A stretch of DNA of 64,000 nucleotides, taken from Patescibacteria group bacterium. GTDB taxonomy: Bacteria; Patescibacteriota; Patescibacteriia; Patescibacteriales; JAQVLT01. Each line of letters starts with the position of its first letter. The stretch's first letter is position 1. The stretch lies in NCBI GenBank assembly GCA_028704015.1, contig JAQVLT010000002.1:9499-73498 (forward strand), in the 5' to 3' direction. The position numbers and the translations under genes are program-made. This document shows, one piece after another, positions 1,232 through 62,692 of the stretch. The notes beneath the pieces were generated by a model. It was not told where the DNA came from. It was given only the letters and a program-made list of their open reading frames with translations, and did no database searches.

Positions 1232-3880
1232 ATGTTTTTAGAAAAATTAGAAGTACAAGGGTTTAAATCTTTTGCCAATAAAAATACATTGGTGTTTCCG
1301 GGCATGGTGGACAAAAGCAGGCGCGGCCTTACCGCCGTGGTCGGGCCGAACGGTTCGGGCAAATCCAACGTGGCTGATTCCATCCGCTGGGCGCTCGGAG
1401 AGCAGTCTATGAAAACTCTCAGGGGAAAAAAAGGCGAAGACGTAATTTTTTCCGGATCGGACAAGAAAGGCAAACTCGGCATGGCGGAGGTTTCTTTGTT
1501 TTTGAATAACGCGGATCGCAAGGCGGCGATTGATTATTCGGAAGTAGTTCTGACTCGCCGTCTTTTTCGGAGCGGCGAAAGCGAATACTTAATTAATAAT
1601 TCACGCGCCCGGCTCTATGACGTGCAAATGCTTCTCGCCAAAGCGAATTTTGGCCAGCGAACGTATAGCGTCATCGGACAGGGAATGGTGGAGGGATTTT
1701 TAAACACTTCGCTTGCAGAACGCAAGGAATTTTTTGACGAAGCTACGGGTGTCAAGCAATTTCAAATCAAGCGCGATGAAGCACTCAATAAGTTAAAAAA
1801 CAGTTACGAAAATTTGAGCCAGGCGGAAATGCTTATTTCGGAAATTGAGCCGCGCGTTCAGAGTTTGACGCGCCAAGTGAATAAGCTGAAAAGGCGCGGC
1901 GAGATTGAAACCGAACTCAAAGAATTGCAGATTCAATATTACAGTAAAATTTGGCATGAGATTTTTACCAAATTTTCCGAGCATAATAATCAATATTTGG
2001 AATTGGAAAAAAATAAAATAGAAAAAGCGAAAAAATTGGAACAACTGCAACGCGAACTGGAAAAAATGGAAGCACAAAAAGGCGCGGGCGAGGAATTTGT
2101 TAATTATCAAAAAGAATTAAATAATCTGCAAATCTCCAAAGATTCTTTGGTAAAGCAGATTGCCAAGATTGATGCGCAAATTGAAATGAATCTGGAATCG
2201 CAAGGCAAGTTTGATGTTTCGTGGCTCCTCGCAAAAAAGAACGAACTGGAAGCAGCTATCAAGCGCGCCCAAGAAGAATTGTCTCTGATTTCCGGAAATG
2301 AAAAAGAAGAGAACGAATTAAAAAATCTGGAAAGCGAACGAAAAAATATTGTTGAAAAAATAAAAAATTTAAATGAAAAAGTTTTAAAATTATCGAGCGC
2401 GAAAAGCGGCACAGGCGAACAGCAAACTTTGAACACACGGCTGGAAGATTTGGCGGAACGTTTAAAAAATTTGGAAGGCGAAGAAGATGCGGCGGTAGTT
2501 AGAAAAATAGTTCGGGAAATCAGAGAAGAAATCGTAAAATTGGTTAAGCTGGTTAAAAAAGAAGACGAAAAATTGGAACTGGAAAAAGCGCATCGCGAGT
2601 TAATGAATTTAGGCGAAGAGCGCGAAAAAATATCTTTTAAAATTAATGAATTAAGTTTGAAAATAAATTCCGCGAAAGAAAAAGAGCGGCTATTTTCGGG
2701 CGAATTGGCGAAATTAAAAGTAGAACTGACCGGCATTGAGCAGAAATTAAAAGAGCAAAAGACCGAAGTAAAGACAGGCGATCTGGACGCGGAGAAAAAT
2801 AAGTTAAAAAAAGACTTAGAAAAGATAGAGGCGGAAATGGCGCGCGTCAAGGGTGATGCCGGAGAGATTTCACGGCTGGAAGAAGAGAAGCGAAACAAAC
2901 TATTTGGTTTACAGAAAAATTTGCAGACTCTGCAAAATGAAGTAAATGAATTGTCCAATCGTCTAAATGAAATAAAAATAAATTCTACGCGGTTTGAAAC
3001 TCGTCTGGAAGATTTGGAAACGGAAATCCGGCAGAATCTCGGCGGACTCAAAGAAGTTAAAGAGCGCAAAGTTGAAGGCGAGATTGATATTGAGGCGGCG
3101 TTAGCTAAAATTAATCAGCTCAAGCATCAGCTTGAACAGATCGGTGGTATTGATCCGGAAATTGAAAAAGAATATATTGAGACAAAAGAGCGCTATGATT
3201 TTCTCTCCGGGCAAGTTAATGATTTGAACGGCGCAATCGGTTCTTTGGAAGAAATTATTAAAGAATTGGACGCGGTAATCAAAGAAAGATTTGATAAAGA
3301 GTTTAAAATAATTTCCGAGAAGTTTGAGGAATATTTTAAAATTTTGTTTAATGGCGGAAACGCGAAGATTGTGAAAGTAATGGACGAGCCGACAGTTGAC
3401 AAGGGACAATTGACAGTTGACCTTGAAAATTCAGAAGAGGGCGAATCCTCTTCCGCTAAGGCTACGGAGGACAAGAGCGCGGTTGATTTGAAGCGGATAA
3501 AATATTTGCAGAAGTATAATGCAACCGGTTTGGCGGGTATTGAGATTCAGGCGACGCCTCCGGGAAAAAAGATTAAGTCAATTTCCATGCTTTCGGGCGG
3601 CGAACGCGCTCTCACCGCGATCGGTTTGATCTGCGCGATTATCAGCGCCAATCCTTCGCCATTTGTGGTGTTGGATGAAGTTGATGCCGCGCTGGACGAA
3701 GCGAATTCGGAACGGCTCGCGAAAATTCTTGACGACCTTTCTAATAAAACACAGTTTATCGTCATTACTCACAACCGCGCCGCCATGCGCCGCGCCAATG
3801 TTCTCTACGGTGTGACTATGGGAGACGATGGGGTGTCAAAGTTGCTTAGCGTAAAGTTGGATGATGCCATGGTAAAATAA
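1232..3880 (+). CDS. smc: SMC-family chromosome segregation ATPase, short, no recognisable hinge
   Basis: Walker A GPNGSGKSN; signature LSGGE; Walker B VLDEVDAALD. About 440 aa of K/E-rich coiled coil lies between the head halves. Confidence 0.85.
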   Translation: MFLEKLEVQGFKSFANKNTLVFPGMVDKSRRGLTAVVGPNGSGKSNVADSIRWALGEQSMKTLRGKKGEDVIFSGSDKKGKLGMAEVSLFLNNADRKAAIDYSEVVLTRRLFRSGESEYLINNSRARLYDVQMLLAKANFGQRTYSVIGQGMVEGFLNTSLAERKEFFDEATGVKQFQIKRDEALNKLKNSYENLSQAEMLISEIEPRVQSLTRQVNKLKRRGEIETELKELQIQYYSKIWHEIFTKFSEHNNQYLELEKNKIEKAKKLEQLQRELEKMEAQKGAGEEFVNYQKELNNLQISKDSLVKQIAKIDAQIEMNLESQGKFDVSWLLAKKNELEAAIKRAQEELSLISGNEKEENELKNLESERKNIVEKIKNLNEKVLKLSSAKSGTGEQQTLNTRLEDLAERLKNLEGEEDAAVVRKIVREIREEIVKLVKLVKKEDEKLELEKAHRELMNLGEEREKISFKINELSLKINSAKEKERLFSGELAKLKVELTGIEQKLKEQKTEVKTGDLDAEKNKLKKDLEKIEAEMARVKGDAGEISRLEEEKRNKLFGLQKNLQTLQNEVNELSNRLNEIKINSTRFETRLEDLETEIRQNLGGLKEVKERKVEGEIDIEAALAKINQLKHQLEQIGGIDPEIEKEYIETKERYDFLSGQVNDLNGAIGSLEEIIKELDAVIKERFDKEFKIISEKFEEYFKILFNGGNAKIVKVMDEPTVDKGQLTVDLENSEEGESSSAKATEDKSAVDLKRIKYLQKYNATGLAGIEIQATPPGKKIKSISMLSGGERALTAIGLICAIISANPSPFVVLDEVDAALDEANSERLAKILDDLSNKTQFIVITHNRAAMRRANVLYGVTMGDDGVSKLLSVKLDDAMVK

Positions 3881-3915
3881 AAATTTAAAAAAATAAAAAT
3901 CAAGGCAAGATATTT

Positions 3916-6036: not shown

Positions 6037-6069
6037 GGGCGCCAGCTCCGTAGTTTGGAACTGGCGCCC
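6037..6069 (-). terminator. rho-independent terminator of the 406-aa gene
   Basis: gggcgccag / ctggcgccc stem, with a T-run on the minus strand (aaaaa at 6031-6035 on plus). Confidence 0.6.
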
Positions 6070-6078
6070 AGTGGTTTT

Positions 6079-7299
6079 TCATTTGGACAAGAGACACATG
6101 GACGCAAAGTTTGCGTCCTGAAACGCTTTTTCATCCCTACCAACTTCCCCTGAAAGTTGGTAGTCAAGAGCATCTTCCAGATATCGTCTATTTTCTGGAG
6201 AAACGCTCTTCCTCAAAGTCGCCAACCGCTGAAGCGGCTGGCGCACCAAACTCACGAACTCATCGCGTGCCAAAAGCGGCGCCGCGATGAACTCCAGAAA
6301 CATCCGCTCCAACTCAAGAAGGCTGGAGGGCTGAAATTCCCAACACCCCCCGCCCTCTTGACGGATTTTTGCTAAATCCGCCTTCTCGCAGGCCTGAGTC
6401 ACTTCTTCTCTTGCCTGTGACAAGAGAAGTTTGTTTTCCTTGGCCAGTTTCATAATCCTACTGGCCACATAGACTGAAGTGGCTCTGAAAATATCCACTT
6501 CATCCCAATCCTGGGATGTTTCGTATTCCTCCTCCCAGGATTCTTTATCATCCTGGTTAGCAGCAAACTCCTTGGCCGCTTCCAGAAAAATTTCCGCTGC
6601 GATTAAAGCAGCGTCTATATTTTCCACTGCCTCAGCCACAAACATCTCGTGGCTGGTTTCTTTGCGAGGATAAACTTTAACCTCGCTAACATTCAGTGCC
6701 CACCATCCCGCCGAATGGTAGGCTAATTGTGAGCCGTTCACCTGACGAAAGTCCGCCAGGTGAGAGCAAATTGCCCGATATGTGATGCAAGCCTTGCGCC
6801 ACGTATCAAAAATTTCCTCAAAATCCTTTTGGTGGCAAACATGTGCCACCCTTTCCGCCCTTTCCAGCTCGCGGCAAAAAGCACTCACCGCGTCTTTCAA
6901 GGGCTCCCCGGATTTTTGAGGAGGGATTTCCCCCTCCAAATTAAAATATTCGGGATTCTCCCTCATTTTTTTTATTGCCCTGATCAACCAAATTGACAGG
7001 GCAAAAGAAGGGGTTCCGATGTGATATCCATCGGTACCAACTGAAATTCCGATATATCCCCCGAAGGATTTACCCTCAAGAGGAATAACCTCGCCCGACT
7101 CCCTCTGTCGAAAAATCGGCTTATTGAGAGTGGCAGGGGTCGGGAAATGGTTCCAGTAAACATAGAAAGTTCCCATTTCTGGGAAATTCCATACCTCGAA
7201 ATCCCTATCGCCATTATGAAGCCGATCGTCATGATAAAGCTCGGCCTCTTTAAAAGATAAAAAAATTTTTATCCCGTTTCCATCTTCTTTTATTCTCAT
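6079..7299 (-). CDS. hypothetical protein (GC-rich island), 406 aa
   Basis: Long ORF with SD ggagaggag 7 nt before the ATG. No motif recognised. Confidence 0.6.
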   Translation of the reverse strand: MRIKEDGNGIKIFLSFKEAELYHDDRLHNGDRDFEVWNFPEMGTFYVYWNHFPTPATLNKPIFRQRESGEVIPLEGKSFGGYIGISVGTDGYHIGTPSFALSIWLIRAIKKMRENPEYFNLEGEIPPQKSGEPLKDAVSAFCRELERAERVAHVCHQKDFEEIFDTWRKACITYRAICSHLADFRQVNGSQLAYHSAGWWALNVSEVKVYPRKETSHEMFVAEAVENIDAALIAAEIFLEAAKEFAANQDDKESWEEEYETSQDWDEVDIFRATSVYVASRIMKLAKENKLLLSQAREEVTQACEKADLAKIRQEGGGCWEFQPSSLLELERMFLEFIAAPLLARDEFVSLVRQPLQRLATLRKSVSPENRRYLEDALDYQLSGEVGRDEKAFQDANFASMCLLSK

Positions 7300-7356
7300 T
7301 TTTTTCTCCTCTCCCCGCCTTCGCCCGCGGGGTGGGCCATGAAATTTTAAAAGTTC
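7300..7356 (-). promoter_or_regulatory. conserved 5' leader, copy 1 (hairpin next to the SD)
   Basis: Sense strand reads ttttaaaatttcatGGCCCACCCCGCGGGCGAAGGCGGGGAGAGGAGaaaaaaATG. Near-identical to the leader at 7959-8015. Confidence 0.5.
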
Positions 7357-7406
7357 TCAACTCTTTGAGCCGGCCAACCGAAATGGTTGATAAGCTCGAA
7401 AAGTTG

Positions 7407-7449
7407 GGGGGACGAATTGGAAGTTGGTATCTTCTCAAATTCGTCCCCC
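7407..7449 (-). terminator. possible terminator hairpin after the 162-aa gene
   Basis: 12-bp arms gggggacgaatt / aattcgtccccc. Only a weak T tract follows on the minus strand. Confidence 0.35.
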
Positions 7450-7472
7450 TGTTTATGGTTCCTGGAGAGAGT

Positions 7473-7958
7473 TCACTCCTCCAGGAGGGGCAAGTCGCCC
7501 CTTGAGCTTTCAACCTCGAACTGGTTGAAAGCTCCGTAATGAAGTTTCAGCCCCAAAGGACCAATCGGGGCAAAAACTTCGATGTCAATCCGGGACAGGT
7601 CAGAAATCAGCTTGTCCTCTCCCTGGAAAATCGGGGTGAACCTGCAAAGCAGGCACCCCTTCTGGAAACTTCCCCGGTAGCCCTTGAAGGTCACCGAGCC
7701 GGGTGTGAATTCATACACCCCCTTTTTGGAGGCCGTGGTATAGCGCACCAGGGCCTCTCCGATTTCAATCTCGGCGTTGCCTTCCCATGATGGAAGGTCG
7801 CCGATGGAGCAACCTTTATAAGGCCACCCCTCAAGGCCAGTCACGCTACGCTGACCGGTCCAGAGTTCGGCGGCAAACTTCGCCGCCGCAAACAGCTTTT
7901 CCGTTTTTTGGAAATCCAGAGCCAAACGCTCCGGAGAAGAAAGAAGGGTCACTTTCAT
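7473..7958 (-). CDS. hypothetical protein (GC-rich island), 161 aa
   Basis: Start moved to the ATG at 7958 (MKVTLLSS...), which follows SD ggaaggag. No motif recognised. Confidence 0.55.
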   Translation of the reverse strand: MKVTLLSSPERLALDFQKTEKLFAAAKFAAELWTGQRSVTGLEGWPYKGCSIGDLPSWEGNAEIEIGEALVRYTTASKKGVYEFTPGSVTFKGYRGSFQKGCLLCRFTPIFQGEDKLISDLSRIDIEVFAPIGPLGLKLHYGAFNQFEVESSRGDLPLLEE

Positions 7959-8015
7959 ATTTTCTCCTTCCCCGCCTTCGCCCGCAGGGTGGGCCAAATA
8001 TTTTTAAAAAGAACT
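7959..8015 (-). promoter_or_regulatory. conserved 5' leader, copy 2
   Basis: Sense strand reads ttttaaaaatatttGGCCCACCCTGCGGGCGAAGGCGGGGAAGGAGaaaatATG. The 29-nt core differs from copy 1 at one position, C to T, which keeps a G-U pair. Confidence 0.5.
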
Positions 8016-8161
8016 TTTTTGACAGTTAAACTTTTTTATTGTTTAACAAAATAGTATAACATAGAATAATAATATTGTCAATTATAATATAACAAAAATA
8101 GGCATTATATTTAAATAAGCTTGATAAAATTATAAATTATTCAATATATTATTATAAATAA

Positions 8162-8203
8162 TTGTCAAAAATAATTTGACAAAATATGGAGATGTGATAT
8201 AAT
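8162..8203 (+). promoter_or_regulatory. sigma70-type promoter with an overlapping inverted repeat (candidate operator)
   Basis: TTGACA 8176-8181, 16-nt spacer, TATAAT 8198-8203. The inverted repeat ttgtcaaa (8162-8169) / tttgacaa (8175-8182) overlaps the -35 box. Confidence 0.5.
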
Positions 8204-8249
8204 CAATAATAGCTTAAAGCTTTTAGCTGTTAGCTTTTAGAAATAATAA

Positions 8250-11481: not shown

Positions 11482-11707
11482 TTTGTTGCTCCTTCTGCCG
11501 TGAAATGAACGTGAAAACACAAGAAATAGCCAAAGGCAACCGACCTGCTAATTTATAACATTTTTATAGTTTTGTCAAGTATTTAATATTTTGTGCTATA
11601 ATGTAAATGAAATTTTAAATTTTAAGTTTTAAATTATTAGTTAATTTATAATTTAGTCATTTAAAATTGATTTAAAATTTAGAATTTAGAATTTATAATT
11701 TTACTTT

Positions 11708-13228
11708 ATGTCTTCAAAAATATTATCAGGCGCCGTCGTAGGTTTGGACGCAGAAATCGTGGAAGTGGAAGCGGACACTGGCGGCGGCGAACTGGGAAAA
11801 TTTGCGATTGTCGGCCTGCCGGATTTAGCAGTGTCAGAATCAAAAGAGAGAGTGCGCAGCGCAATCAAAAATTCCGGACTTAATTACCCGAAGGTAAAAG
11901 TGACCGTAAATTTGGCGCCGGCGGATCTCAAAAAACACGGCCCGAGTTATGATTTCCCAATTGCGGTGAGCATTTTGTCAATGACGCATACTTTTCCAGT
12001 TGGTTTTGATTTTTCTAAAATGCTTTTTGTCGGCGAGTTGGCTTTGAGCGGCGATTTGCGGCCGGTGAATGGAATTTTACCGATTGCCATCAAGGCCGGA
12101 AAAGTAGGAATAAAAACAATCTTTGTGCCGCGCGATAATGCGAGTGAAGCCAAATTGGTAAAAGAACTGGAAGTGATTCCGGTGAGTAATTTGCGAGAAT
12201 TAGTCTCGCACTTGCTTGAAGAAGATCGTCTTACGCCGCTTGCAGAAAGCGATTTTGATTTTGCGAACGCGTCTACACTTTCTGACATGGCGCATATTCG
12301 CGGCCAGGAGCATGTGAAGCGCGCGATGGAAATTTCCGCAGCCGGCGCGCACAATATGCTCATGTCCGGTCCCCCCGGATCGGGAAAAACTTTGATTGCC
12401 CGCACCATGCCGTCAATTTTACCAAATTTAACTTTGGAAGAAGCGTTGGAAATCACCAAAATTTATAGTGTGTCCGGAGAATTGCCGAATGACACCGCGC
12501 TCATTACCGCGCGGCCATTTCGCGCGCCGCACCATACCGCTTCGGGAGTAGCCTTGGTGGGCGGAGGCGCCTGGCCGAGGCCGGGAGAAATTTCCATGGC
12601 ACATCGCGGTGTTTTGTTTCTAGATGAATTTGGTGAATTCCCGCGGCAAGTCTTGGAAAATTTGCGCCAGCCGTTGGAAGACGGGATTATCAATGTCAGT
12701 CGCGCGGCCGGCAATCTCACATTTCCGGCAAAATTTATTTTAATTGCGGCCATGAATCCGTGTCCTTGCGGTTTTAGTGGCGATCAAGAACGCAATTGCG
12801 TCTGCTCGCCGATTCAGATTATTAATTACAAAAAAAGAATTTCCGGCCCGATTCTTGACCGCATTGATCTTCATATTGAAGTGCCGCGCCTCAAGTTTGA
12901 AAAATTGTCCGGCGAAAGTCTGGGCGAAAGCTCCTGTGATATTAAAGTGCGCATTGAGAAAGCGCGTGCAATACAACATGAAAGATTTAAGAACACGCCT
13001 TTTATTACCAATTCGGAAATGAATTCCGAGGCGGTGAAGAAGTATTGCGAAGTTGATGAGCCGTCCAAACAGCTTTTGCGTACGGCGGTTGACCAGTTGC
13101 ATCTGTCGGCGCGCGCGTATTTTCGTATTTTAAAATTGGCGCGAACCATCGCAGATTTGGTGGGCGAGACAAAAATTTTAACGCCGCATATTGCCGAAGC
13201 CCTGCAGTACCGGCCAAAGGTGGAATAG
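11708..13228 (+). CDS. comM: YifB/ComM-family Mg-chelatase-like ATPase
   Basis: The N-terminal Lon-protease-like domain, Walker A GPPGSGKT and the C-terminal region are typical of ComM. Confidence 0.85.
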   Translation: MSSKILSGAVVGLDAEIVEVEADTGGGELGKFAIVGLPDLAVSESKERVRSAIKNSGLNYPKVKVTVNLAPADLKKHGPSYDFPIAVSILSMTHTFPVGFDFSKMLFVGELALSGDLRPVNGILPIAIKAGKVGIKTIFVPRDNASEAKLVKELEVIPVSNLRELVSHLLEEDRLTPLAESDFDFANASTLSDMAHIRGQEHVKRAMEISAAGAHNMLMSGPPGSGKTLIARTMPSILPNLTLEEALEITKIYSVSGELPNDTALITARPFRAPHHTASGVALVGGGAWPRPGEISMAHRGVLFLDEFGEFPRQVLENLRQPLEDGIINVSRAAGNLTFPAKFILIAAMNPCPCGFSGDQERNCVCSPIQIINYKKRISGPILDRIDLHIEVPRLKFEKLSGESLGESSCDIKVRIEKARAIQHERFKNTPFITNSEMNSEAVKKYCEVDEPSKQLLRTAVDQLHLSARAYFRILKLARTIADLVGETKILTPHIAEALQYRPKVE

Positions 13229-13311: not shown

Positions 13312-13415
13312 AATTTTTAATTTCCAATTTTTAATTTTTTAAATAATTTTTAATATCAAATTTTAAAAATTAAAATATTAAGTTATTATTTAAAAATTAC
13401 AAAATTAAAAATTTT
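13312..13415. repeat. ~105-nt AT-rich palindromic element (family E)
   Basis: Arms aatttttaatttccaatttttaattttttaaataat / attatttaaaaattacaaaattaaaaatt. Related to the copies at 42421 and 47532. Confidence 0.5.
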
Positions 13416-13430
13416 TAAATTTATATTTTT

Positions 13431-14834
13431 ATGAAAAATAAACTTATAATTATATCATTATTATTTGTCTTCCTCATGACCACCGGCCTGGGTTGCAGCG
13501 CGCCGAGCGCTGAAGTGCAAAAAGCAATTGAGCCGATAAAACTTACGTATTGGCGGGTTTGGGATGATTCCGATGCCTTTGACGAAATTATTGCCAATTA
13601 TAAATTGCTTCATCCTTTTGTAACCATTGAATATAAAAAATTTCGCTACGGAGAGTATGAACAAGCTCTCTTGGAGGCTATGGCCGAGGATCGCGGGCCG
13701 GATATTTTTTCTATTCATAATACTTGGACGGAAAAATATCAAAATAAAATTGCTCCTTTGCCGATAGAAACAACCATGGCTTATCCAGTAACGCAAGGAA
13801 CTATTAAAAAAGAAGTGGTAAATGAATTAAGAACAACAAAAAGCTTGACTATTAATGATATAAAAAATAATTTTATTGATACTGTCTATAATGATGTGGT
13901 TTTAAAAGATGTTGATGTTGCCACCAAGCAAGAAACGGAAAAAGTTTACGCTTTGCCTTTGGCGATGGATACTTTGGCGTTGTATTATAATAAGGATTTG
14001 TTTAATAACGCCGGCATTGCCACTCCGCCGAATTATTGGAACCCAGAATTTCAACAAATAGTAAAAAAATTAACCAAACAAGACTCCAAGGGTGGGATAA
14101 TACAATCAGGTGTAGCTATGGGAGGAGGTAAAAATATTGAGCGTTATAGTGATATTTTATCAATTTTAATGATGCAAAATGGCGCCGAAATGATGAGCGA
14201 AAATGGCGCGGTGTCTTTTAGCGAAACTCCGGTTGCTTTGCGCAGCCAAGGGTACAATCCGGCGTTGGAAGCGCTGCGTTTTTATACTGATTTTGCCAAC
14301 CCTGCCAAGGAAGTATATTCATGGAATGCTAACTTAGAAAATTCTTTGCAAATGTTTATGTATGGTAAATTGGCCATGATGTTTGGTTATGCATATCACC
14401 TGCCCACTATTCGCGCGCAAGCGCCAAAACTTAATTTTGGCATTGCTAAATTGCCGCAAATTGAAGGCAGTCAGTCACAGATTAACTTTGCTAATTATTG
14501 GGTGGAAACAGTTTCCAAAAAAAGTAAAAATATTGACACGGCTTGGGATTTTGTTCAGTTTGCCACCAGAGCGGAACAGGCAAAAACTTATATAGCGAAA
14601 ACCGGGAAACCAACCGCTCTAAGGTCATTGGTTAATGAAGAATTAGAAAGTCCGGATCTTGGAATATTTGCGAGCCAAGTTTTGACAGCGAAGAGCTGGT
14701 ATAAAGGGGCTGATTCTAACGCTGCCGAATTAATATTTGCCGACATGATTAATGAAGCAAACCAGAGCGCTCCTGATAAATTAATGAGCGTATTAAACAC
14801 GGCGGCGGCGAGAGTGCAGCAGACGGTTGAGTAG
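13431..14834 (+). CDS. ABC-transporter extracellular solute-binding lipoprotein (family 1)
   Basis: Signal peptide plus lipobox TTGLGCS. Length and motifs are typical of sugar-type SBPs. No permease or ATPase gene is adjacent. Confidence 0.7.
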   Translation: MKNKLIIISLLFVFLMTTGLGCSAPSAEVQKAIEPIKLTYWRVWDDSDAFDEIIANYKLLHPFVTIEYKKFRYGEYEQALLEAMAEDRGPDIFSIHNTWTEKYQNKIAPLPIETTMAYPVTQGTIKKEVVNELRTTKSLTINDIKNNFIDTVYNDVVLKDVDVATKQETEKVYALPLAMDTLALYYNKDLFNNAGIATPPNYWNPEFQQIVKKLTKQDSKGGIIQSGVAMGGGKNIERYSDILSILMMQNGAEMMSENGAVSFSETPVALRSQGYNPALEALRFYTDFANPAKEVYSWNANLENSLQMFMYGKLAMMFGYAYHLPTIRAQAPKLNFGIAKLPQIEGSQSQINFANYWVETVSKKSKNIDTAWDFVQFATRAEQAKTYIAKTGKPTALRSLVNEELESPDLGIFASQVLTAKSWYKGADSNAAELIFADMINEANQSAPDKLMSVLNTAAARVQQTVE

Positions 14835-14847
14835 CTTTAAGCTTGAA

Positions 14848-14870
14848 GCCTTGCCTATCGGCAGACAGGC
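14848..14870. repeat. degenerate family B palindrome
   Basis: gccttgcctatcggcagacaggc, directly after the SBP stop codon. Confidence 0.4.
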
Positions 14871-14958
14871 TTTTAGGTTTTAGGTTGTGGGTTTTTGGTT
14901 GAAATATTTGGTTTATCCCTGATTACTTATTACTATTTACTAATTACTATATTATTTT

Positions 14959-17051: not shown

Positions 17052-17438
17052 ATGCGCAATTTACTTACTCTAAAATATTGGTTCACTTTGAGGCCGGAAG
17101 CTTTTCTCCCGGTTTATTTGAAAGCTTTTATAGCTTTGATAATTTTATTTGCAGTTTTGTTTGTGGTTTTTTGGCTTTTAGGCAAAAAAAAGAAAGCGCT
17201 TTATGCTAATATTTTTCGACGTTTGTCATCTTTTTTCGCCAGTAATTTTTTTATTGGCTTGGTAATATTATTTTTTAGCTATGAAATGGTTGTTTTTTTG
17301 TCGGCCAGATTTTGGATTATGTTTTGGGGCATTGAAATGTTGGTTTGGCTTATTGCCATTATTAGAAAACTAAAGGAAATACCGGAGAGAAAAAAACAGC
17401 TGGAAAAAGATAAGGAATTTAAGAAGTATATTCCGTAA
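17052..17438 (+). CDS. small membrane protein, unknown function
   Basis: Three or four hydrophobic helices and a basic C-terminus. Confidence 0.5.
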   Translation: MRNLLTLKYWFTLRPEAFLPVYLKAFIALIILFAVLFVVFWLLGKKKKALYANIFRRLSSFFASNFFIGLVILFFSYEMVVFLSARFWIMFWGIEMLVWLIAIIRKLKEIPERKKQLEKDKEFKKYIP

Positions 17439-17493: not shown

Positions 17494-17526
17494 GAAGGCG
17501 GCTCGCCAAATCGGCGAGCCGCCTTC
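17494..17526. repeat. GC-rich perfect hairpin (GCCGCCTTCG type)
   Basis: gaaggcggctcgcc aaatc ggcgagccgccttc. No T-run follows. Confidence 0.5.
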
Positions 17527-17538
17527 GTTAATTAGATA

Positions 17539-19236
17539 ATGGACAAAAATATTTATAAAAAAGAGATTGATGAATTGCTAAAAGTGAAGATTGGTTCGCG
17601 CCAAGATTTAATGGTAGCAAAAAGGAAAATTGCCAAGAAATATGGAATGGGAATTTTAACCAATTCTCAGATTTTGAGTTTTATTAAAAAACAAAATATC
17701 AAGAAAGAAACACCGGCATCTCGCCTTCTGGAAAATATTTTGCGTAAACGCGCGGTGCGAACGCTCTCCGGGATTGCTCCGGTCGCAGTATTAGTTAAAC
17801 CTTATAAATGTCCGGGAAAATGCGCTTATTGTCCAACAGAAAAAGACGTGCCGCAGAGTTATTTGTCAAACGAGCCGGCAGTGATGCGCGCGATTCGTTG
17901 TGATTATGATCCTTACACGCAAGTGCAAATGCGGCTTCGCGCTCTGGAAGCGAATGGACATCGGCCGGAAAAAATTGAATTGATTGTCATCGGCGGTACG
18001 TGGTCCTATTTGCCGGAAGAATATAAATTTTGGTACATCAAGGAATGTTTTCGAGCGGCGAACGAGTTTGTAAAAAATCAAAATGCAAAAATCAAAAGTC
18101 AAAATTACAATTCAAAATTAAAAACCTGCCTGCCGGTAGGCAAGGTTGAAAATTTAAAATTGAAACTTAAAAAAGAGCAGGAGAGAAATGAAAGTGCAAA
18201 ATACAGGATTATTGGAATTACGTTAGAGACCCGCCCCGATTATATTAATGAAAAAGAATTATTAGAGATGCGGGAGTTGGGTTGTACGCGCGTGGAATTG
18301 GGTGTGCAAGCGATTGATGATAAAATTTTAAATAAAAATAAACGCGGGCATGGTGTCAAAGAAATCGCGGCCGCGACAAAACTGCTGAAAGATTTCGGGT
18401 TTAAAGTAACTTATCATTTTATGCCCGGGCTTCCAGGATCAACGCCGGCCAAGGATTTAAAAATGTTTAAGCAATTATTTACTGATGAGCGCTTCCAGCC
18501 GGACCAAATAAAATTTTATCCAACCGTGGTGACGCGCGGCAGTTTGCTTTATCGTTGGTGGAAGGCAGGTAAATATAAACCATACTCAAATAAAATTTTA
18601 GAAAATTTAATTATTGCCTGCAAAAAAATCGTGCCGTCATATGTGCGAATAATTCGGTTGATTCGAGATATTCCGGGCGAGTCAATTATAGCCGGAAATC
18701 GCGTGACAAATCTGCGGCAGGTTCTAGAACAACGAGGCGTAAAGTGTAATTGTATTAGATGTAGAGAAGCACGTGGACAACAATTTACAATTAACAATTT
18801 ACAATTAACAATTCTAAAATATAAATCATCAGACGGAGAAGATTATTTTATTAGCGCGGACAGTAAAGATGGAAAAATTTTGTATGGATTTTGCCGATTG
18901 CGCCTTAAATCATCAAAACATGAAAACATTAAATCATTAAAACAAGATCGAGAAAATATGAAACTTGGTTTCGGGTACCCGAAACCAAGTTTCTTGGATG
19001 ACGCCGCGTTGATTCGGGAGTTGCATGTTTATGGAGAATTGGTGCCGGTGGGCGGTGGGAAAAAAGTTCAGCATGTTGGATTGGGAAAAAAATTAATGGC
19101 CGAAGCAGAGAGAATCGCGTATAAAAATGGTTTTAAGAAAATCGCAGTGATTGCCGGCATAGGCGTGCGTGGGTATTATCGGAAGTTAGGGTATCGACTG
19201 GAAAATAGTTATATGGTTAAGCAGTTACCTGGTTAA
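17539..19236 (+). CDS. elp3: Elp3-type radical-SAM/GNAT tRNA-modification enzyme
   Basis: Radical-SAM cluster motif CPGKCAYCP. C-terminal GNAT (HVGLGKKLMAEAERIA). Several repeat-derived in-frame inserts. Confidence 0.8.
   Translation: MDKNIYKKEIDELLKVKIGSRQDLMVAKRKIAKKYGMGILTNSQILSFIKKQNIKKETPASRLLENILRKRAVRTLSGIAPVAVLVKPYKCPGKCAYCPTEKDVPQSYLSNEPAVMRAIRCDYDPYTQVQMRLRALEANGHRPEKIELIVIGGTWSYLPEEYKFWYIKECFRAANEFVKNQNAKIKSQNYNSKLKTCLPVGKVENLKLKLKKEQERNESAKYRIIGITLETRPDYINEKELLEMRELGCTRVELGVQAIDDKILNKNKRGHGVKEIAAATKLLKDFGFKVTYHFMPGLPGSTPAKDLKMFKQLFTDERFQPDQIKFYPTVVTRGSLLYRWWKAGKYKPYSNKILENLIIACKKIVPSYVRIIRLIRDIPGESIIAGNRVTNLRQVLEQRGVKCNCIRCREARGQQFTINNLQLTILKYKSSDGEDYFISADSKDGKILYGFCRLRLKSSKHENIKSLKQDRENMKLGFGYPKPSFLDDAALIRELHVYGELVPVGGGKKVQHVGLGKKLMAEAERIAYKNGFKKIAVIAGIGVRGYYRKLGYRLENSYMVKQLPG
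18123..18147. repeat. family B palindrome inside the elp3 reading frame
   Basis: aacctgcctgccggtaggcaaggtt encodes TCLPVGKV. It sits in a ~100-nt AT-rich-armed insert (about 18076-18175). Confidence 0.65.
18960..18993. repeat. family A (GGGTACCC-core) perfect palindrome inside the elp3 reading frame
   Basis: gaaacttggtttcgggtacccgaaaccaagtttc encodes KLGFGYPKPSF. Confidence 0.7.
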
Positions 19237-27185: not shown

Positions 27186-27917
27186 ATGCGAAAAATGAGT
27201 TTCCAAAATGAAAATTATTATCATATTTATAATAGAGGTGTTGATCACCGGGATATTTTTGGCGATGCCAATGATTTTGGCAGGTTTATCAGAAGTATGA
27301 GAATAATGAATAATAACTCAAATGAAGGACAACGTGATTATGTTTTGAGAAAAATGTTTAAAAGTGGTAAATATCCGGAGCTTAGCTCTGGGTACCCAGA
27401 GCTAAGCTCCTTAACGTCTGGTCTTTTTAATATTTTTAACCAGGAATTAAGATTAGTTGTAAGGAACTATTATAATTTTGTCGAAATAATTTCTTATTGT
27501 TTAAATAAAAATCACTATCATTTATTATTAAAACAATTAATTGATAAAGGCGTTGAAAAATTTCTCCACAAGATTGGCACTAGTTATACAAATTATTTCA
27601 ATTTGAGAAGTAAGCGTTCCGGCTCTCTTTTTGAAACCACTTATAAATCTGCTTATCTCGATACCGAAGGAAAAATTATTCGCGCGTCCACCTATATCAA
27701 CGGCAACCCGGAAATTCATAAAATTTGCCGGGCGGAAAATTGGCCGTGGTCCAGTTATTTAGATTATCTGGGGTTGAGAAGCGGCACGATGTGTAATAAA
27801 GAAATAATTTTAAGTCAATTTAGGTCTATTGAAGAATATCGGAAGTTTGTTAAGATGATTATAAGGGATGAAAAGGCGATTAAAGATGAATTGGAGAAAA
27901 TTGATGATAAATATTAG
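27186..27917 (+). CDS. HUH/Y1 IS200-like (RayT-like) transposase-family protein
   Basis: YHIYNRG strand, HUH motif NHYHLLL, Tyr region STYINGNP, NWPWSSYLDY tail. Carries an internal palindrome. Confidence 0.65.
   Translation: MRKMSFQNENYYHIYNRGVDHRDIFGDANDFGRFIRSMRIMNNNSNEGQRDYVLRKMFKSGKYPELSSGYPELSSLTSGLFNIFNQELRLVVRNYYNFVEIISYCLNKNHYHLLLKQLIDKGVEKFLHKIGTSYTNYFNLRSKRSGSLFETTYKSAYLDTEGKIIRASTYINGNPEIHKICRAENWPWSSYLDYLGLRSGTMCNKEIILSQFRSIEEYRKFVKMIIRDEKAIKDELEKIDDKY
27377..27410. repeat. family A palindrome inside the RayT-like ORF
   Basis: ggagcttagctctgggtacccagagctaagctcc is a perfect 34-nt palindrome. It encodes PELSSGYPELSS. Confidence 0.7.
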
Positions 27918-27950
27918 AAACTTAGTTTCGGGTACCCGAAACTAAGTTTC
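27917..27950. repeat. family A palindrome abutting the stop codon of the RayT-like gene
   Basis: gaaacttagtttcgggtacccgaaactaagtttc is a perfect 34-nt palindrome. Confidence 0.7.
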
Positions 27951-32232: not shown

Positions 32233-32396
32233 GCGGAATAACCGCATACTCTCGTTCTTTGAATGGGGGCAGACCGCAAATCCGCCCTCTTTTATTTTTT
32301 TGAATAACGAGTAAAATGGAATTAGTAAATAGTAAACAGTAAATTGTTAAAATTATTCCCTGTTTGCTGATTGCTATTTACCATTTACTAAATTTT

Positions 32397-44318: not shown

Positions 44319-44931
44319 CCTGTCTGCCGGCAGGCAGGCTAAATAAATTCAAAATACTAAATCTAAATGATCAAAACAGCGACTAATTATTACGATTTGG
44401 AAGAAAGAACGTTAAAATTCGCTAAAATGGTAAGAGAATTTATTAAGAAATTGCCGAAAACAATTTCTAATATAGAAGATAGTAAACAATTAGCTCGTTC
44501 ATCCGGATCGGTTGGCGCTAACTACATTGAAGCTAACGAAGCATTAAGCAAGAAAGACTTTGTCATGAGAATAAAAATTTGCCGCAAAGAAGCGAAAGAA
44601 TCAAAATATTGGCTGTTACTAATTGATTGCCAAAAAGAATTAATACTAGAACGTGACACCTTAATTAAAGAAGCAACCGAACTAACTAAAATATTTGGAG
44701 CAATTTTAGAGAAATGCAAATAAAATAGTTGTATAATAGTGTTTTGAGTTTAAATAATTAGAATTTTGAATTTGTTTAGGATTTAGAGTTTAGTGCTTAG
44801 GGTTTCAGGAATGTTATAGCAGGAAGCGCAGGAATTAACTCTAATTTTTTCACGAATCACGCTCACCTTAGAAAAGAAAATTTAAAATTTAGTAATTTAT
44901 CATTCAATTAACCTGCCTGCCGGCAGACAGG
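44319..44931. mobile_element. 613-bp cassette: four-helix-bundle gene between inverted family B palindromes and AT-rich subterminal inverted repeats
   Basis: 44319-44338 (cctgtctgccggcaggcagg) is the exact reverse complement of 44912-44931. Inner arms (ctaaat.../aaattcaaaat versus attttgaattt/...atttag) match the gene-less element at 58564-58695. Confidence 0.5.
44367..44723 (+). CDS. four-helix-bundle protein (23S rRNA intervening-sequence protein family)
   Basis: SSGSVGANYIEANEALSKKDFVMRIKICRKEAKESKYWLLLI. Confidence 0.75.
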   Translation: MIKTATNYYDLEERTLKFAKMVREFIKKLPKTISNIEDSKQLARSSGSVGANYIEANEALSKKDFVMRIKICRKEAKESKYWLLLIDCQKELILERDTLIKEATELTKIFGAILEKCK

Positions 44932-44962
44932 AATTTATAATTTAGAATTTAAAATTTTTGTT

Positions 44963-50702: not shown

Positions 50703-50792
50703 GGGCATAGTAAAATAGTAATTAGTAAATAGCACTTAATTAAAACGGCTTTGCCCTATTTACTGTTTACTATTTACTGTTTACTAAATACC

Positions 50793-55422: not shown

Positions 55423-56151
55423 ATGTCCGGACATTCCAAATGGGCAACAACTAAAAGGCATAAAGCGGTTATTGATTCTAAGCGCGCCGCTGTTTTTACT
55501 AAAATCGCCAACATAATTACCATTGCCGCGCGTGAAAAAGGCGGTGATCCAACGACTAATTTTTCTTTGCGCATGGCAATGGACAAAGGACGGGCGGTTA
55601 ATATGCCAAAAGATAACATTGAACGCGCGATCAAGCGCGGTACCGGCGAAGGTGATGGGGCGCAGATTGAGGAAATAATTTATGAAGGCATTGGCCCGGT
55701 GAAATCTCAGTTTATAATTAAATGTTTGACAGATAGTCGTAACCGCACAGCCTCCGAGGTTCGTCATATTTTTTCTGAATATGGCGGAGCGCTTAGTTCT
55801 GTTATGTGGAATTTTTCTAAAAAAGGAGTTTTGCGAATTATGAATGAAGAATTACAAAGCAAGAATTTAATAAATGAGGAATTTGAGTTAGAGCTGATTG
55901 ATGCTGGCGCCCAGGATATTTTGAAAGAAGAAGAAGGCTGGACAATTTATACTAAGATGGAAGATTTGGTAAAAGTTAAGAATTTTTTAGAAAGTAAAAA
56001 TTTAGCAACAGAATCAGCTGATATTGAGTATGTTGCCAAAGATACGGTAAAAGTTGAAAATGCGGAAGATCAAGAAAAAATGGAAAAATTTATTGAAGAA
56101 TTGGAAAATAATGAAGATGTGAGCGATTATTATACGAATGCAATCACATAA
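55423..56151 (+). CDS. yebC: YebC/PmpR-family transcriptional regulator
   Basis: MSGHSKWATTKRHKA start and full-length family pattern. The last codons run into a family D repeat. Confidence 0.9.
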   Translation: MSGHSKWATTKRHKAVIDSKRAAVFTKIANIITIAAREKGGDPTTNFSLRMAMDKGRAVNMPKDNIERAIKRGTGEGDGAQIEEIIYEGIGPVKSQFIIKCLTDSRNRTASEVRHIFSEYGGALSSVMWNFSKKGVLRIMNEELQSKNLINEEFELELIDAGAQDILKEEEGWTIYTKMEDLVKVKNFLESKNLATESADIEYVAKDTVKVENAEDQEKMEKFIEELENNEDVSDYYTNAIT

Positions 56152-56218
56152 CACATATCACATAACACATATCACTTAGCAATAATTGTTTTGTGATATG
56201 TGTTATGTGCTATGTGAT
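56143..56218. repeat. family D (CACATAACACAT) inverted repeat, gene-less hairpin
   Basis: atcacataacacatatcacataacacatatcac / gtgatatgtgttatgtgctatgtgat with a 17-nt loop. Overlaps the yebC stop and the ruvC start. Confidence 0.65.
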
Positions 56219-56687
56219 TTTAGGAATTGATCCCGGAATCGCCGATACCGGCTGGGGAGTTATTGAAAAAAATAAGCAGGGAGGCTTGTCCTGTTTGGCT
56301 TATGGTTCAATTAAAACTAAGGCAAAAACTGAATTGGCCGATAGATTGGAAATCATAAATTTAGAGCTCGCAAAAATTATCAAAGAATATAAACCTCAAC
56401 TAATCGCGGTTGAGGAACTGTTTTTTTGTAACAATGTAAAAACTGCCTTGGTGGTCGGGCAGGCGCGCGGCGTGGTGATTCTAACTGCCAAGCAAAACAA
56501 AGTAAGATCGGTAGAATTTACTCCGCTTCAAGTTAAACAAGCAGTGTCAGCCTATGGCAAAGCGGGAAAATTGCAGGTACAAAAAATGGTGAAGCTTCTG
56601 CTTAATCTGAAAGAAATACCAAAGCCAGATGACGCGGCGGACGCGCTGGCAATCGCGATTTGCGCGAGTAATTCACGCAACATATAG
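56205..56687 (+). CDS. ruvC: crossover junction endodeoxyribonuclease RuvC
   Basis: ILGIDPG, catalytic E in AVEELFF, DAADALAIA. The start is ambiguous (ATG 56205 or GTG 56214). Confidence 0.85.
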   Translation: MCYVILGIDPGIADTGWGVIEKNKQGGLSCLAYGSIKTKAKTELADRLEIINLELAKIIKEYKPQLIAVEELFFCNNVKTALVVGQARGVVILTAKQNKVRSVEFTPLQVKQAVSAYGKAGKLQVQKMVKLLLNLKEIPKPDDAADALAIAICASNSRNI

Positions 56688-57086
56688 CACATAACACATA
56701 GCATATGAATTTTCATGATAGCTTAAAAATAAAAATGCATTTGTATGTTAAACAAGTATATAAAGTGACAAAAAATTTTCCGCGTGATGAGTTGTACGGC
56801 GTTACCTCGCAATTCAGAAGAGCGGCGATGTCTGTTATTTTAAATTATATAGAAGGTTATGCTCGAAGAAAGGGTAATAATTGTAAAGTGTATAAAAATT
56901 TTTTAGAGATATCTTACGGCTCGCTTCGAGAGACAAAATATCTAATTTATTTTTCTTTCTCTGAAAATTATATCAATCAAAAAAATTATAATTTTTTAAT
57001 TAGCCAAGCCGATGAGCTAGGCAAAATGATCTGGACCACAATAAAAAGCAACTAATTTGCTATATGTTATGTGTTCCATGATATGC
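56681..57086. mobile_element. cassette: four-helix-bundle gene between inverted family D motifs
   Basis: Left catatagcacataacacatagcatatg; right gctatatgttatgtgttccatgatatgc. They share cacataaca in opposite orientation. The repeat is imperfect. Confidence 0.4.
56705..57055 (+). CDS. four-helix-bundle protein (23S rRNA intervening-sequence protein family)
   Basis: FPRDELYGVTSQFRRAAMSVILNYIEGYAR...SYGSLRETKYLIYF. Confidence 0.7.
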   Translation: MNFHDSLKIKMHLYVKQVYKVTKNFPRDELYGVTSQFRRAAMSVILNYIEGYARRKGNNCKVYKNFLEISYGSLRETKYLIYFSFSENYINQKNYNFLISQADELGKMIWTTIKSN

Positions 57087-58563: not shown

Positions 58564-58695
58564 ATCCTAAATTCTAAGCACTAAATTCTAAACAAGCATA
58601 AAATTAAAATGTTTTAAATTCAAAACAGTTTTGGATTTTGAAATTTGATATTTGGATTTATTTAGTATTTAGAGTTTAGTATTTAGAATTTTAAA
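58564..58695. repeat. 132-bp MITE-like palindromic element, gene-less relative of the 44319-44931 cassette
   Basis: Left cctaaattctaagcactaaattctaaa...aaattcaaaac; right attttgaaattt...tttagagtttagtatttagaa. Fills the whole glgA-GH57 spacer. Confidence 0.55.
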
Positions 58696-61874: not shown

Positions 61875-62495
61875 ATGTCCGTGGAAACCCATATTTATGA
61901 TAAGCGTTTTTTTAAGAATACCATCAAATTGGAAGATGATTCTGCGGCGGCCGCAGTTTCTATTTTGATAAAATATTTTTTGCCCAGATCAGTTATTGAT
62001 ATTGGTTGCGGTTGTGGAATTTATTTGAAAGAATTTTCAAATCAAGGCGTAGAAATTTTTGGATACGACGGCGCTCCGGCAGCGCTTGAATCTTCACTGG
62101 TTGGCGACAAAATCAAGCTTCATGATTTATGCGTGCCATTGGTAATAAATAAAAAATTTGATCTTTGCCTCTGCGTTGAAGTCGCTGAACATTTACCGCC
62201 CGAATACGCTAATATTTTAGTTGAGACTTTGGCAAATTTATCTGACATTATTATTTTTTCTGCCGCCACTCCGGGCCAAGGTCCGCGTTCCATCGGACAT
62301 ATCAACGAACAGCCGCCGGAATATTGGCTAGAAAAATTTCAATCTAAAAATTTTATTTTTGACCAAAATATATCTTTAAAGATAAAAAAAGAAATGGAAG
62401 AAAAGGGTGTTGTCTGGTGGATTACTAAGAATTTAATGATATTTAAAAATGACCCGTGTCAAACCCGAGCCGGAAAAAATTTACCACATTTATAA
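61875..62495 (+). CDS. class I SAM-dependent methyltransferase
   Basis: Motif I IDIGCGCG. The 3' tail overlaps the 5' fragment of the disrupted RayT-like gene in another frame. Confidence 0.65.
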   Translation: MSVETHIYDKRFFKNTIKLEDDSAAAAVSILIKYFLPRSVIDIGCGCGIYLKEFSNQGVEIFGYDGAPAALESSLVGDKIKLHDLCVPLVINKKFDLCLCVEVAEHLPPEYANILVETLANLSDIIIFSAATPGQGPRSIGHINEQPPEYWLEKFQSKNFIFDQNISLKIKKEMEEKGVVWWITKNLMIFKNDPCQTRAGKNLPHL

Positions 62496-62515
62496 CCTGC
62501 CTACCGGCAGGCAGG
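62496..62515. repeat. family B palindrome interrupting the YHIYN|RG motif
   Basis: cctgcctaccggcaggcagg. Removing these 20 nt restores one continuous ORF. Confidence 0.7.
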
Positions 62516-62660
62516 TCGTGGCGTTGAAAAAAGAAAGATATTTATGGATAAATGGGATTATATTAGATTTTTAGAAAGTACGAGAGAGTTTAATTGTGAT
62601 GAACCGATTGGCAGTCTCTATTTAAAAAAATATCTCGCCCAAAAAAACAAAGTTAGCCAA

Positions 62661-62692
62661 GGTGTCGGACACCCTATAGGGTGTCCGACACC
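62661..62692. repeat. perfect 32-nt palindrome inside the RayT-like reading frame
   Basis: ggtgtcggacaccctatagggtgtccgacacc encodes GVGHPIGCPTP. It occupies the same position as the family A palindrome in the 27186 paralogue. Confidence 0.7.

Follow-up and report, generated by a model that had tools for sequence, protein, structure and literature searches.

Rickettsia palindromic elements (RPEs) are palindromic sequences that lie in frame within housekeeping open reading frames (ORFs) of Rickettsia and are kept as a peptide in the product (Ogata et al. 2000, via PMC10969869 and PMC3733652). In the portions of PMC10969869 devoted to them, they are described as ~100 to 150 bp long, with conserved peptide families, no known transposase, and a distribution restricted to Rickettsia. 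The corresponding portions of PMC10969869 and PMC3733652 name truB as a reported target of RPE-1. Repetitive extragenic palindromes (REPs) are 20- to 40-bp palindromes present in multiple copies, and they accompany a stable Y1/HUH gene, RayT, that has adjoining copies (PMC3733652, PMC6006769, PMC8266576). Classical REPs are imperfect palindromes with a 2- to 20-nt loop and a 5- to 13-bp stem and are predominantly extragenic (PMC3733652, PMC6006769). One end of their hairpin carries a conserved GTAG or CGTC tag (PMC3733652, Di Nocera et al. 2013; PMC6006769, Quentin et al. 2018). Intragenic, in-frame REPs that encode short loops have been documented in Opitutus, Xanthomonas, Thauera, and others (PMC3733652, PMC6006769, PMC8266576). 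Here we describe repeats within the Elp3 gene of an ultra-small Patescibacteria group bacterium (GenBank assembly GCA_028704015.1, contig JAQVLT010000002.1, positions 9,499 to 73,498). The whole stretch of 64,000 nucleotides that was analyzed is called the window, and positions refer to it unless another locus is named.

The Elp3 ORF (17539-19236, plus strand) is complete and open and encodes 565 amino acids of a radical-SAM plus GNAT tRNA U34 modification enzyme. We hold, with a probability of about 0.7, that permissive regions of this gene have been colonized by two kinds of DNA-level repeat, both read as surface loops. One kind would be short perfect palindromes of dispersed REP-like families that are associated with RayT-like HUH/Y1 genes. 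The other would be AT-rich tandem arrays of 7- or 8-nt units, the type that dominates intergenic DNA here. A preliminary description of this DNA had listed four stretches of the ORF, sites a to d, as intergenic-type repeats inserted in frame. It gave their coordinates, sequences, and translations correctly, and the Elp3 frame is open. Its interpretation holds for sites a and d and is half correct for site c, whereas it fails at site b and in where it places the sites among the protein domains.

The ORF scored 552 bits against TIGR01211 (cutoff, 350), matched the Pfam families Radical_SAM, Radical_SAM_C, and GNAT, and matched solved Elp3 structures in the PDB with an E value of 1e-116. In an alignment of 52 orthologues, Cys91, Cys95, and Cys98 were invariant, as was a pattern of the GNAT domain, QH.G.G. 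An AlphaFold2 model had a pLDDT of 77.8 and TM scores of 0.82 to 0.91 to Elp3 structures, and the protein is identical to one from an NCBI Patescibacteria metagenome-assembled genome (MAG). Judged by sequence, this Elp3 is a functional enzyme. Across the inserts its predicted product reads ...NMKLGFGYPKPSFLDD... and ...KLKTCLPVGKVENLK.... For comparison we used ~195 Patescibacteria Elp3 orthologues, made up of 120 database protein homologues (P numbers) and the 75 genes that were complete among 80 metagenome loci, for which DNA was at hand (L numbers). The structures compared were Elp3 of Dehalococcoides (DmcElp3) and of Methanocaldococcus (MinElp3).

Site d (18960-18993; strand not assigned) is a perfect 34-nt palindrome with 17+17 arms, GAAACTTGGTTTCGGGTACCCGAAACCAAGTTTC, which we call K-type. 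It reads KLGFGYPKPSF, and its RNA hairpin is predicted to fold with -24 kcal/mol (z, -6.1). Perfect 34-nt palindromes with the GGGTACCC core number three in the window, against a chance expectation of 0. The other two, also without an assigned strand, are an E-type copy at 27377-27410, in frame within a RayT-like ORF that starts at 27186 (ELSSGYPELSS), and a K-type copy at 27917-27950, at the 3' end of the same gene. The 27917 copy differs from the Elp3 copy by a single change in each arm, and these changes complement each other. The palindrome and its two siblings were described correctly, except that the siblings lie in or at the end of a gene and not in typical intergenic DNA. Counting all cores, there are five perfect 34-nt palindromes in the window, four of them within ORFs, and perfect arms of 15 bp or longer were observed at 11 positions, versus 0 in 20 shuffles.

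The second palindrome family is found at site a. There, a GC hairpin, aacctgcctgccggtaggcaagg (18121-18145; strand not assigned), stands between two AT-rich arms on the plus strand. It is a CCGG-centered palindrome of a type we call B, aacctgcctgccggtaggcaaggtt, and reads TCLPVGKV. The palindrome itself, CCTGCCTGCCGGTAGGCAAGG, spans 18125-18145, and the RNA fold is -16.3 kcal/mol (z, -4.1). Tandem Repeats Finder (TRF) identified the left arm (18073-18124) as a period-7 array with the consensus AAAATTC in 7.6 copies, reading NAKIKSQNYNSKLK, and the right arm (18146-18173) as a 14-nt repeat in two copies, reading ENLKLKLKK, which is common to the closest relatives. As first described, the hairpin belongs to a dispersed family that is also intergenic. 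There are five B-type copies of 20 to 21 nt in the 64-kb window, where 0 are expected by chance. The copy at 14849-14869 is intergenic, just past the stop of ORF 13431-14834 and next to a TTTTAGG heptamer array. Two more intergenic copies lie at 44319-44338 (first match position, 44318), with AT-rich heptamer-like flanks, and at 44912-44931, flanked by AAAATTT and AATTTAA heptamer arrays. The last, of 20 nt, is at 62497-62516 (first match position, 62495), out of frame in a second RayT-like gene. None of these four has an assigned strand. The intergenic copies are flanked by period-7-type arrays, as is the Elp3 copy. A miniature transposable element with inverted repeats (MITE) at site a was ruled out, as both AT-rich arms are A-rich direct arrays and not inverted repeats. 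The idea that the 1-nt imperfection of the Elp3 B-type copy is a frame-restoring mutation was dropped, as the 21-nt GGCAAGG variant is also intergenic at 14849. As a separate observation, between the copies at 44319-44338 and 44912-44931 lies a gene of 118 aa whose product is a four-helix-bundle protein of the 23S rRNA-intervening-sequence type (PF05635), and the pair might delimit a small cassette that is mobile or exchangeable.

Both palindromes of Elp3 fall in loops of the model. In the radical-SAM domain, site a forms a loop of low confidence that is flanked by helices 160-175 and 200-217, with a pLDDT of 61/51 at residues 181-200. Residues 181-210, ~30 in all, are extra relative to the DmcElp3 and MinElp3 structures. 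Sites c and d together form an excursion, likewise of low confidence, that links strands 448-457 and 489-497 as the loop of a beta-hairpin of the GNAT domain, with a pLDDT of 45/40 at residues 461-480. They add ~17 to 20 residues relative to the same structures. The helices and strands on either side are confidently modeled, and sites a and c/d match short loops in DmcElp3 and MinElp3. Therefore, the inserts do not lie in surface loops between the radical-SAM and GNAT domains, as had been suggested, but inside each of the two. We also considered whether the c/d insert is the acetyl-CoA blocking loop of DmcElp3, and rejected this. That loop is Dmc 390-407 (residues taken from the title of PDB 5L7L), which corresponds to query residues ~498-512, whereas the c/d region corresponds to Dmc 365-382.

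Alignment with the orthologues tested the claim that the four segments are lineage-specific insertions. The claim stands for the hairpin of site a and for sites c and d, judged against the solved structures and the more distant Patescibacteria orthologues. It fails for site b, where homologous residues are present everywhere. The TCLPVGKV hairpin is confined to the query lineage among the ~195 orthologues, whereas K/N/Q-rich heptamer-type peptides related to the left arm of site a occur at the same site in most close orthologues. Site a is extended and basic in all of the Patescibacteria Elp3 proteins examined, with at least 18 residues in most and 6 at one locus, compared to ~4 residues in DmcElp3. 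Its length spans 6 to 58 residues across the 75 loci, and both its sequence and its length are hypervariable within the query's clade. Some Elp3 subfamilies carry ordinary conserved sequence there, and one 39-residue version is conserved as protein. The c/d loop has 37 residues in the query, a compact 12 residues ('IDKNSPIAPAII'-like) at 35 of the 75 loci, and 7 to 64 residues elsewhere.

Site c (18905-18944, plus strand; TRF span, 18910-18943) is a period-8 array of TTAAAACA in five copies, reading SSKHENIKSLKQ. The array is present and its residues are extra, as first described, but no second copy occurs anywhere in the 64-kb window, and membership in an intergenic family does not hold.

Site b (18779-18813, plus strand) is a different case. 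TRF found a period of 7/14, with AACAATTTACAATT repeated 2.5 times and reading QFTINNLQLTI, and there are two exact copies of caatttacaattaa. The tandem copies had been reported correctly. The reported likeness to a tRNA spacer (33486) is weak, with 2 mismatches in 14, and denotes a shared class (AT-rich heptamers) rather than a family. Site b aligns to existing residues in orthologues, DmcElp3, and MinElp3, its segment is 15 to 17 residues long at 69 of 75 loci, and its second half is a confident beta-strand in the model (421-430; pLDDT, ~92). In the query's clade, the DNA at site b consists of heptamer arrays whose unit depends on lineage (AATTACA, AATTTTC, GATTTTC, or CAATTTA/CAATTAA), and identity at lags of 7, 14, and 21 was 0.41, 0.44, and 0.40, versus 0.26 in control segments. 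Averaged over all loci, lag-7 identity was not raised (0.31). L113, an orthologue with 53% identity, shares the query's 30-nt array, and distant orthologues have ordinary sequence of equal length. The 14-nt unit is read in two frames; therefore, the repetition is a property of the DNA. Site b is not an insertion, and we infer that slippage-prone arrays have overwritten a segment of strictly constrained length. Site b of L036 contains a GTAG-tagged palindrome, GTAGAGACGAGGCACTGCCTCGTCTCTAC, that reads CRDEALPRLY and overlaps the conserved CIRCRE zinc-motif codons in the DNA. At the protein level, CRDEALPRL or CRNEALPRS occurs at the matching position of P0046, P0064, P0066, P0073, P0076, P0079, P0087, and P0114.

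Arrays of this kind are common outside genes in the window. TRF found 33 arrays of period 7, 14, or 21, of which only 7 were in coding DNA, which makes up 86.6% of the window (binomial, 3.5e-17). Two of these seven are Elp3 sites a and b, and a third is an ACATAAC heptamer array at 59261-59291 (plus strand), which reads HNIKHITHN in frame within ORF 58698-59879. This ORF matches PF03065, confirming the in-frame repeat that had been reported in a GH57 gene. Related heptamer arrays (units CACATAA, TGTTATG, and AACACAT) lie at 56145-56216 and 56679-56700, in or beside spacers between ORFs. We rejected period 7 as a general trait of Patescibacteria intergenic DNA, as the signal is array specific and strong in this window. 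We also noticed that heptamer arrays with many different units lie directly upstream of or across the start codons of many genes, for example, at 1208-1222, 11642-11709, 13363-13413, 14922-14954, 32323-32344, 44932-44957, 50707-50785, 56145-56216, and 58659-58691.

The DNA was compared with that of the closest relative, L001 (P0002; 75 to 77% protein identity). L001 has both the octamer run of site c and the palindrome of site d at orthologous positions. Therefore, both are older than the split. The L001 palindrome is identical to the query copy at 32 of 34 positions and has lost its symmetry at two. At site a, L001 has a different hairpin (ATCCCGCCGTAGCGGGAT) in place of the B-type copy. It also has two in-frame GC-rich blocks without a query counterpart, one of 24 nt (CCCTTCGACAAGCTCAGGGCGGAG, PSTSSGRS) and one of 30 nt (TCCGCCAAAGGCGGATCTGCCTCGGGCGGA), at alignment columns ~1365-1388 and 1450-1479. 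The peptide PSTSSG appears again in P0026.

The same loops carry other palindromes elsewhere in the phylum. Across the 75 Elp3 genes, the density of GC-containing hairpins in the two loops was 3.6 times that of the remaining gene, and perfect palindromes of 28 to 54 nt occupy the c/d loop of L035, L036, L037, and L049. The loop of L035 carries a GTAGAGACGC...GCGTCTCTAC family that is absent from the window, and related AGAGACGC-arm palindromes occur in L049 and L107. P0058 and P0067, whose identity to the query is only 70 to 72%, have a K-type peptide, KLSFGYPKLSF, in the c/d loop. P0038, P0058, and P0076 are 82 to 84% identical to one another and have three different palindrome peptides in that loop. 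The c/d loop of L036 has a perfect 54-nt palindrome (27+27) at 6285-6338, and that of L085 has five tandem copies of a 27-nt unit (VGNKDICGD).

The K-type element is also not restricted to Elp3. We scanned one genome per species for its 18-nt core and found 32 loci; some matches to so short a core are expected by chance in so large a genome collection, and examination was confined to the 6 loci in Patescibacteria. The 34-mer lies in an ORF at five of these and is intergenic at one. The hosts are TruB (L009), PrmC (L025), and three RayT-like genes, and all five copies are in frame. Pfam confirmed TruB and PrmC, and the PrmC protein has 7 residues more than Thermotoga maritima HemK. A TTAG variant of the K-type is open in one frame only, and every in-ORF copy uses that frame. 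As the K-type 34-mer keeps the frame in unrelated housekeeping genes of other Patescibacteria (TruB and PrmC, along with further Elp3 genes), the comparison to RPEs that had been drawn for this locus is borne out. The palindromes might instead have formed by fold-back copying of adjacent coding DNA, but this was rejected for the K-type because identical 34-mers occur in unrelated contexts and genomes.

The siblings of site d lie at a candidate mobilizer, and a link to RayT-like genes with such palindromes inside their own ORFs had been overlooked in the preliminary description. The gene at 27186-27917 (plus strand) encodes a RayT-like protein of the Y1 (HUH) transposase family, matching PF01797 with 26.4 bits (cutoff, 23). 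It contains NHYHLLL, an H-x-H motif of the HUH type, and YINGNP, which we take to be the catalytic HUH and Tyr of Y1 transposases. In a relative's genome the gene keeps its neighbors, dihydroorotate dehydrogenase (DHODH) upstream and RecQ downstream. One palindrome lies directly 3' of the gene and one inside its ORF, both are kept in L114, and no 5' flanking copy was seen. The two are identical in L114 at 68 of 68 nt (34/34 each), compared to 73% for the surrounding region (P, ~5e-10). The L114 copies are at 3255-3339 and 3861-3894, and a 51-nt unit there, made up of the internal palindrome plus its spacer, is duplicated in tandem.

The window has two further RayT-like genes, and all three hold an in-frame, perfect 34-nt palindrome. 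In the second (62449-63026), it has a TATA core (62660-62693; GVGHPIGCPTP), and in the third (58-579), which is truncated by the window, it has an AACGTT core (265-298). The B-type copy at 62497-62516 splits the second gene between YHIYN and RGVEKRKIF, and its deletion restores a 185-aa ORF. Therefore, palindromes also land out of frame where this can be tolerated. The N-terminal piece of the split gene overlaps the 3' end of ORF 61875-62495, which we read by eye as presumably methyltransferase-like.

Most of the 120 RayT-like homologues have a palindrome-type peptide in one fixed loop, just before the HUH motif, and the DNA of L114 to L118 has perfect or near-perfect (at most 1 mismatch) palindromes of 34 to 52 nt there. 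A 50-nt palindrome also lies just past the stop of the RayT-like gene of L116. Palindrome copies differ by changes mirrored in both arms, each copy staying perfect. The Elp3 loops and the RayT-like loop share 29 peptide 7-mers, whereas the Elp3 loops share 0 with the remaining RayT-like protein, and the conserved parts of the two proteins share 0 with each other. Six palindrome peptide families are common specifically to Elp3 loops and RayT-like loops. The parts of Elp3 beyond the three loops have 6 of the RayT-loop 7-mers, and all of these come from a fourth, N-terminal site. In P0062, this fourth variable site, near the N-terminal domain (residues ~51-60 in query numbering), has the RayT-loop-type peptide EPLSGSKSHLEA. 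The RayT-like gene of L116 has a further neighbor. A locus that resembles a diversity-generating retroelement (bAvd plus RVT_1; 6366-8225) adjoins it, and two 34-nt palindromes (7029-7062 and 7347-7380), which belong to the family of that RayT gene, lie in and beside the reverse transcriptase ORF, with mirrored arm changes between the copies.

The data above show dispersed palindrome families, their repeated occurrence in permissive loops, a filter on frame and stop codons, the association with RayT-like genes, and strong conservation of the copies at those genes. Our proposal for how these patterns arose is as follows. The K-type palindrome at site d would have been inserted before the split from the nearest known relative, and the B-type palindrome at site a would be specific to the lineage. 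RayT-like enzymes, acting on single-stranded DNA hairpins, may spread or maintain such palindromes. The tandem arrays, which probably originate and turn over by slippage, would fill site a, form site c, and overwrite site b. In essential genes, a selection filter would leave only inserts that are in frame, free of stop codons, and located in loops between secondary-structure elements. The frame-breaking B-type copy was seen only in a dispensable RayT-like paralogue, which is consistent with such a filter. The Elp3 inserts are probably neutral passengers. A broader idea, to which we give somewhat less than even odds, is that Patescibacteria host an undescribed, largely intragenic REP-like system, in which divergent RayT-like Y1 genes keep a cognate perfect palindrome in frame in their own ORF at one fixed loop, preserve its nucleotides unchanged as the gene diverges, and seed permissive loops of Elp3, TruB, and PrmC throughout the phylum.

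The resemblance to intergenic repeats could be a coincidence of ordinary linker evolution, with fast-evolving, low-complexity loops of an AT-rich genome being alike in composition. This would suit site c, with no other copy in the window, and site b, which is homologous, conserved in length, and matches the tRNA spacer at only 12 of 14 positions. It would also suit site a, which is variable and K/N-rich in all Patescibacteria Elp3 proteins and conserved in some subfamilies. However, near-exact or exact palindromes of 20 to 34 nt at other loci, where 0 are expected, refute coincidence for sites a and d. The identical 34-mer in unrelated genes of other genomes and the six peptide families common to Elp3 and RayT-like loops also argue against it. 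Even at site b, protein-level selection cannot yield a perfect 14-nt repeat that is read in two frames. We consider coincidence very improbable as an explanation for the whole. If instead the often lysine-rich peptides were adaptive extensions, they might have been recruited for, e.g., tRNA contacts or partner binding in an Elp3 without Elongator partners. The basic, extended site a of every Patescibacteria Elp3 examined speaks for this, as does the 39-residue version conserved in one subfamily. It is hard to reconcile with the hypervariability within the query's clade, the low model confidence, and peptides that are dictated by palindromic or periodic DNA and recur in unrelated proteins, and it appears quite unlikely. 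Chimeric or fold-back errors of metagenome assembly deserve mention because loop-less perfect palindromes can come from amplification or assembly and the window is from a MAG. Yet the insertions are internal, in frame, and within conserved coding flanks; the Elp3 and RayT-locus palindromes are at orthologous positions in an independent JGI assembly (Ga0376277); and the elements recur in many independent assemblies (NCBI, ENA, JGI, and Logan). We regard an artefact as practically out of the question.

A more serious rival, though still an unlikely one, is that the hairpins are functional nucleic acid elements that coding loops tolerate. They could be sites bound or processed by RayT-like proteins, antisense terminators, or structures for mRNA pausing or stability. 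On the antisense strand, T-rich tracts come after both Elp3 hairpins (18125-18144 and 18960-18993), which have an intrinsic-terminator-like score there and fold at -16 and -24 kcal/mol. The 68/68 identity of the RayT-associated palindromes against 73% around them, the mirrored arm changes, and the presence of a palindrome in nearly every RayT-like gene at one fixed loop also agree with such a role. For Elp3 itself the evidence runs the other way. The nearest relative's copy lost its symmetry at two positions, loop contents turn over at 82 to 84% identity, and many orthologues have no hairpin in these loops, so no role tied to Elp3 is conserved. In addition, one B-type copy disrupts a gene.

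The colonization of Elp3 by repeats remains the explanation we prefer, and several observations weigh against it. That the RayT-associated palindromes are perfectly conserved points to a function in DNA or RNA over mere selfish spread. At 32/34, conservation of the K-type copy in Elp3 does not clearly exceed that of the gene as a whole; therefore, maintenance of this copy is not supported. Palindrome copy numbers are low in the available sequence. When the arms and central 16-mers of the loop palindromes were searched in 88 related loci (1.09 Mb), very few extra copies were found near the orthologous Elp3 genes; therefore, the inserts could not be matched, genome by genome, to each genome's own intergenic repeats. 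For the K and B families, we found no target-site duplication, no transposition event, and no tetranucleotide conserved in the flanks. The 27186 protein scored 23 bits against REP_Tyr_transpos, the NCBIfam RayT equivalog (NF047646), far below the cutoff of 80. Site b might in part reflect protein-level constraints, and site c has no relatives. Finally, it is from the open frames that the inserts are predicted to be translated within the Elp3 product.

How does this compare to the described systems? The kind of phenomenon is already known from RPEs and from intragenic REPs in other phyla, and the Patescibacteria case differs in detail. Like RPEs, as far as the sources cited above describe them, the palindromes are in frame in unrelated housekeeping genes of a reduced genome, leave the ORF open, and occupy loops that the model predicts to be compatible with the fold. 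TruB is a host of both. Unlike RPEs, the window elements are 20 to 34 nt and loop-less, fall into many families, occur across Patescibacteria, and are linked to RayT-like genes (a comparison to the description of RPEs only), and tandem micro-repeats supply part of the signal in Elp3. The likeness to REP/RayT systems consists of short, multicopy palindromes (5 B-type and 3 GGGTACCC-core copies per 64 kb) beside a stable Y1/HUH-like gene. The differences are perfect 17+17 arms with no spacer, the mostly intragenic location (4 of the 5 34-mers in the window), a copy inside the transposase-like gene, a protein below the RayT cutoff, and the lack of a GTAG or CGTC tag in the window families. The flanks of 8 K-type and 5 B-type copies had no tetranucleotide in common.

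Three other systems are less close. MITEs that insert in frame, such as ERIC, BOX, QMITE1 of Coxiella, and the MITEs of Anabaena, are 70 to 300 bp long and have terminal inverted repeats and target-site duplications (PMC10969869). The elements here are likewise small, nonautonomous repeats inserted in or fused to host ORFs, but without terminal inverted repeats or duplications. As in contingency simple-sequence repeats, the 7- and 8-nt units at sites a, b, and c would shift the frame if the copy number changed. Unlike in those, no sign of copy-number switching was seen in protein databases, which display intact ORFs only, the length of site b is fixed in most orthologues, the copy numbers are low (2.5 to 7.6), and the host encodes a housekeeping enzyme, being neither a surface gene nor one for restriction-modification. 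Palindromic amphipathic repeat coding elements (PARCELs) are introduced in PMC2996958 as an intragenic pattern of tandem repeats in Mollicutes repeat proteins. In terms of that introduction, they share with our elements palindromic coding DNA that can be translated, in their case as amphipathic peptide repeats, and that has spread among small-genome microbes, whereas ours are single short palindromes in enzyme loops. A literature search on Patescibacteria, Parcubacteria, or candidate phyla radiation (CPR) together with REP, RayT, IS200, or palindromes found nothing relevant within the library of papers that was searched.

If our explanation is correct, selfish DNA within coding genes extends from Rickettsia and a few proteobacteria to the CPR, and the RayT-like gene and its 68/68-conserved palindromes are a candidate enzyme-substrate pair. 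It would account for much of the length heterogeneity and many of the odd low-complexity segments of Patescibacteria proteins, and annotators should be cautious with such segments, which would be DNA driven and not domain-like. Tandem heptamers would be able to overwrite a structural beta-strand at constant length, and particular Elp3 loops would be freely engineerable. Should the broader, more doubtful idea of an intragenic REP-like system also hold, palindromic DNA would be a recurrent, phylum-wide source of loop variation in genomes with almost no intergenic space.

Two more observations were made in the window. A GC-rich, near-perfect palindrome of 33 nt lies just upstream of the Elp3 start (17494-17526). 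It is terminator-like on the minus strand and is probably a bidirectional terminator after ORF 17052-17438. GC-rich hairpins also cluster at 6037-8000, a region with the minus-strand ORFs 6079-7299 and 7473-7997, unlike in the remaining window.

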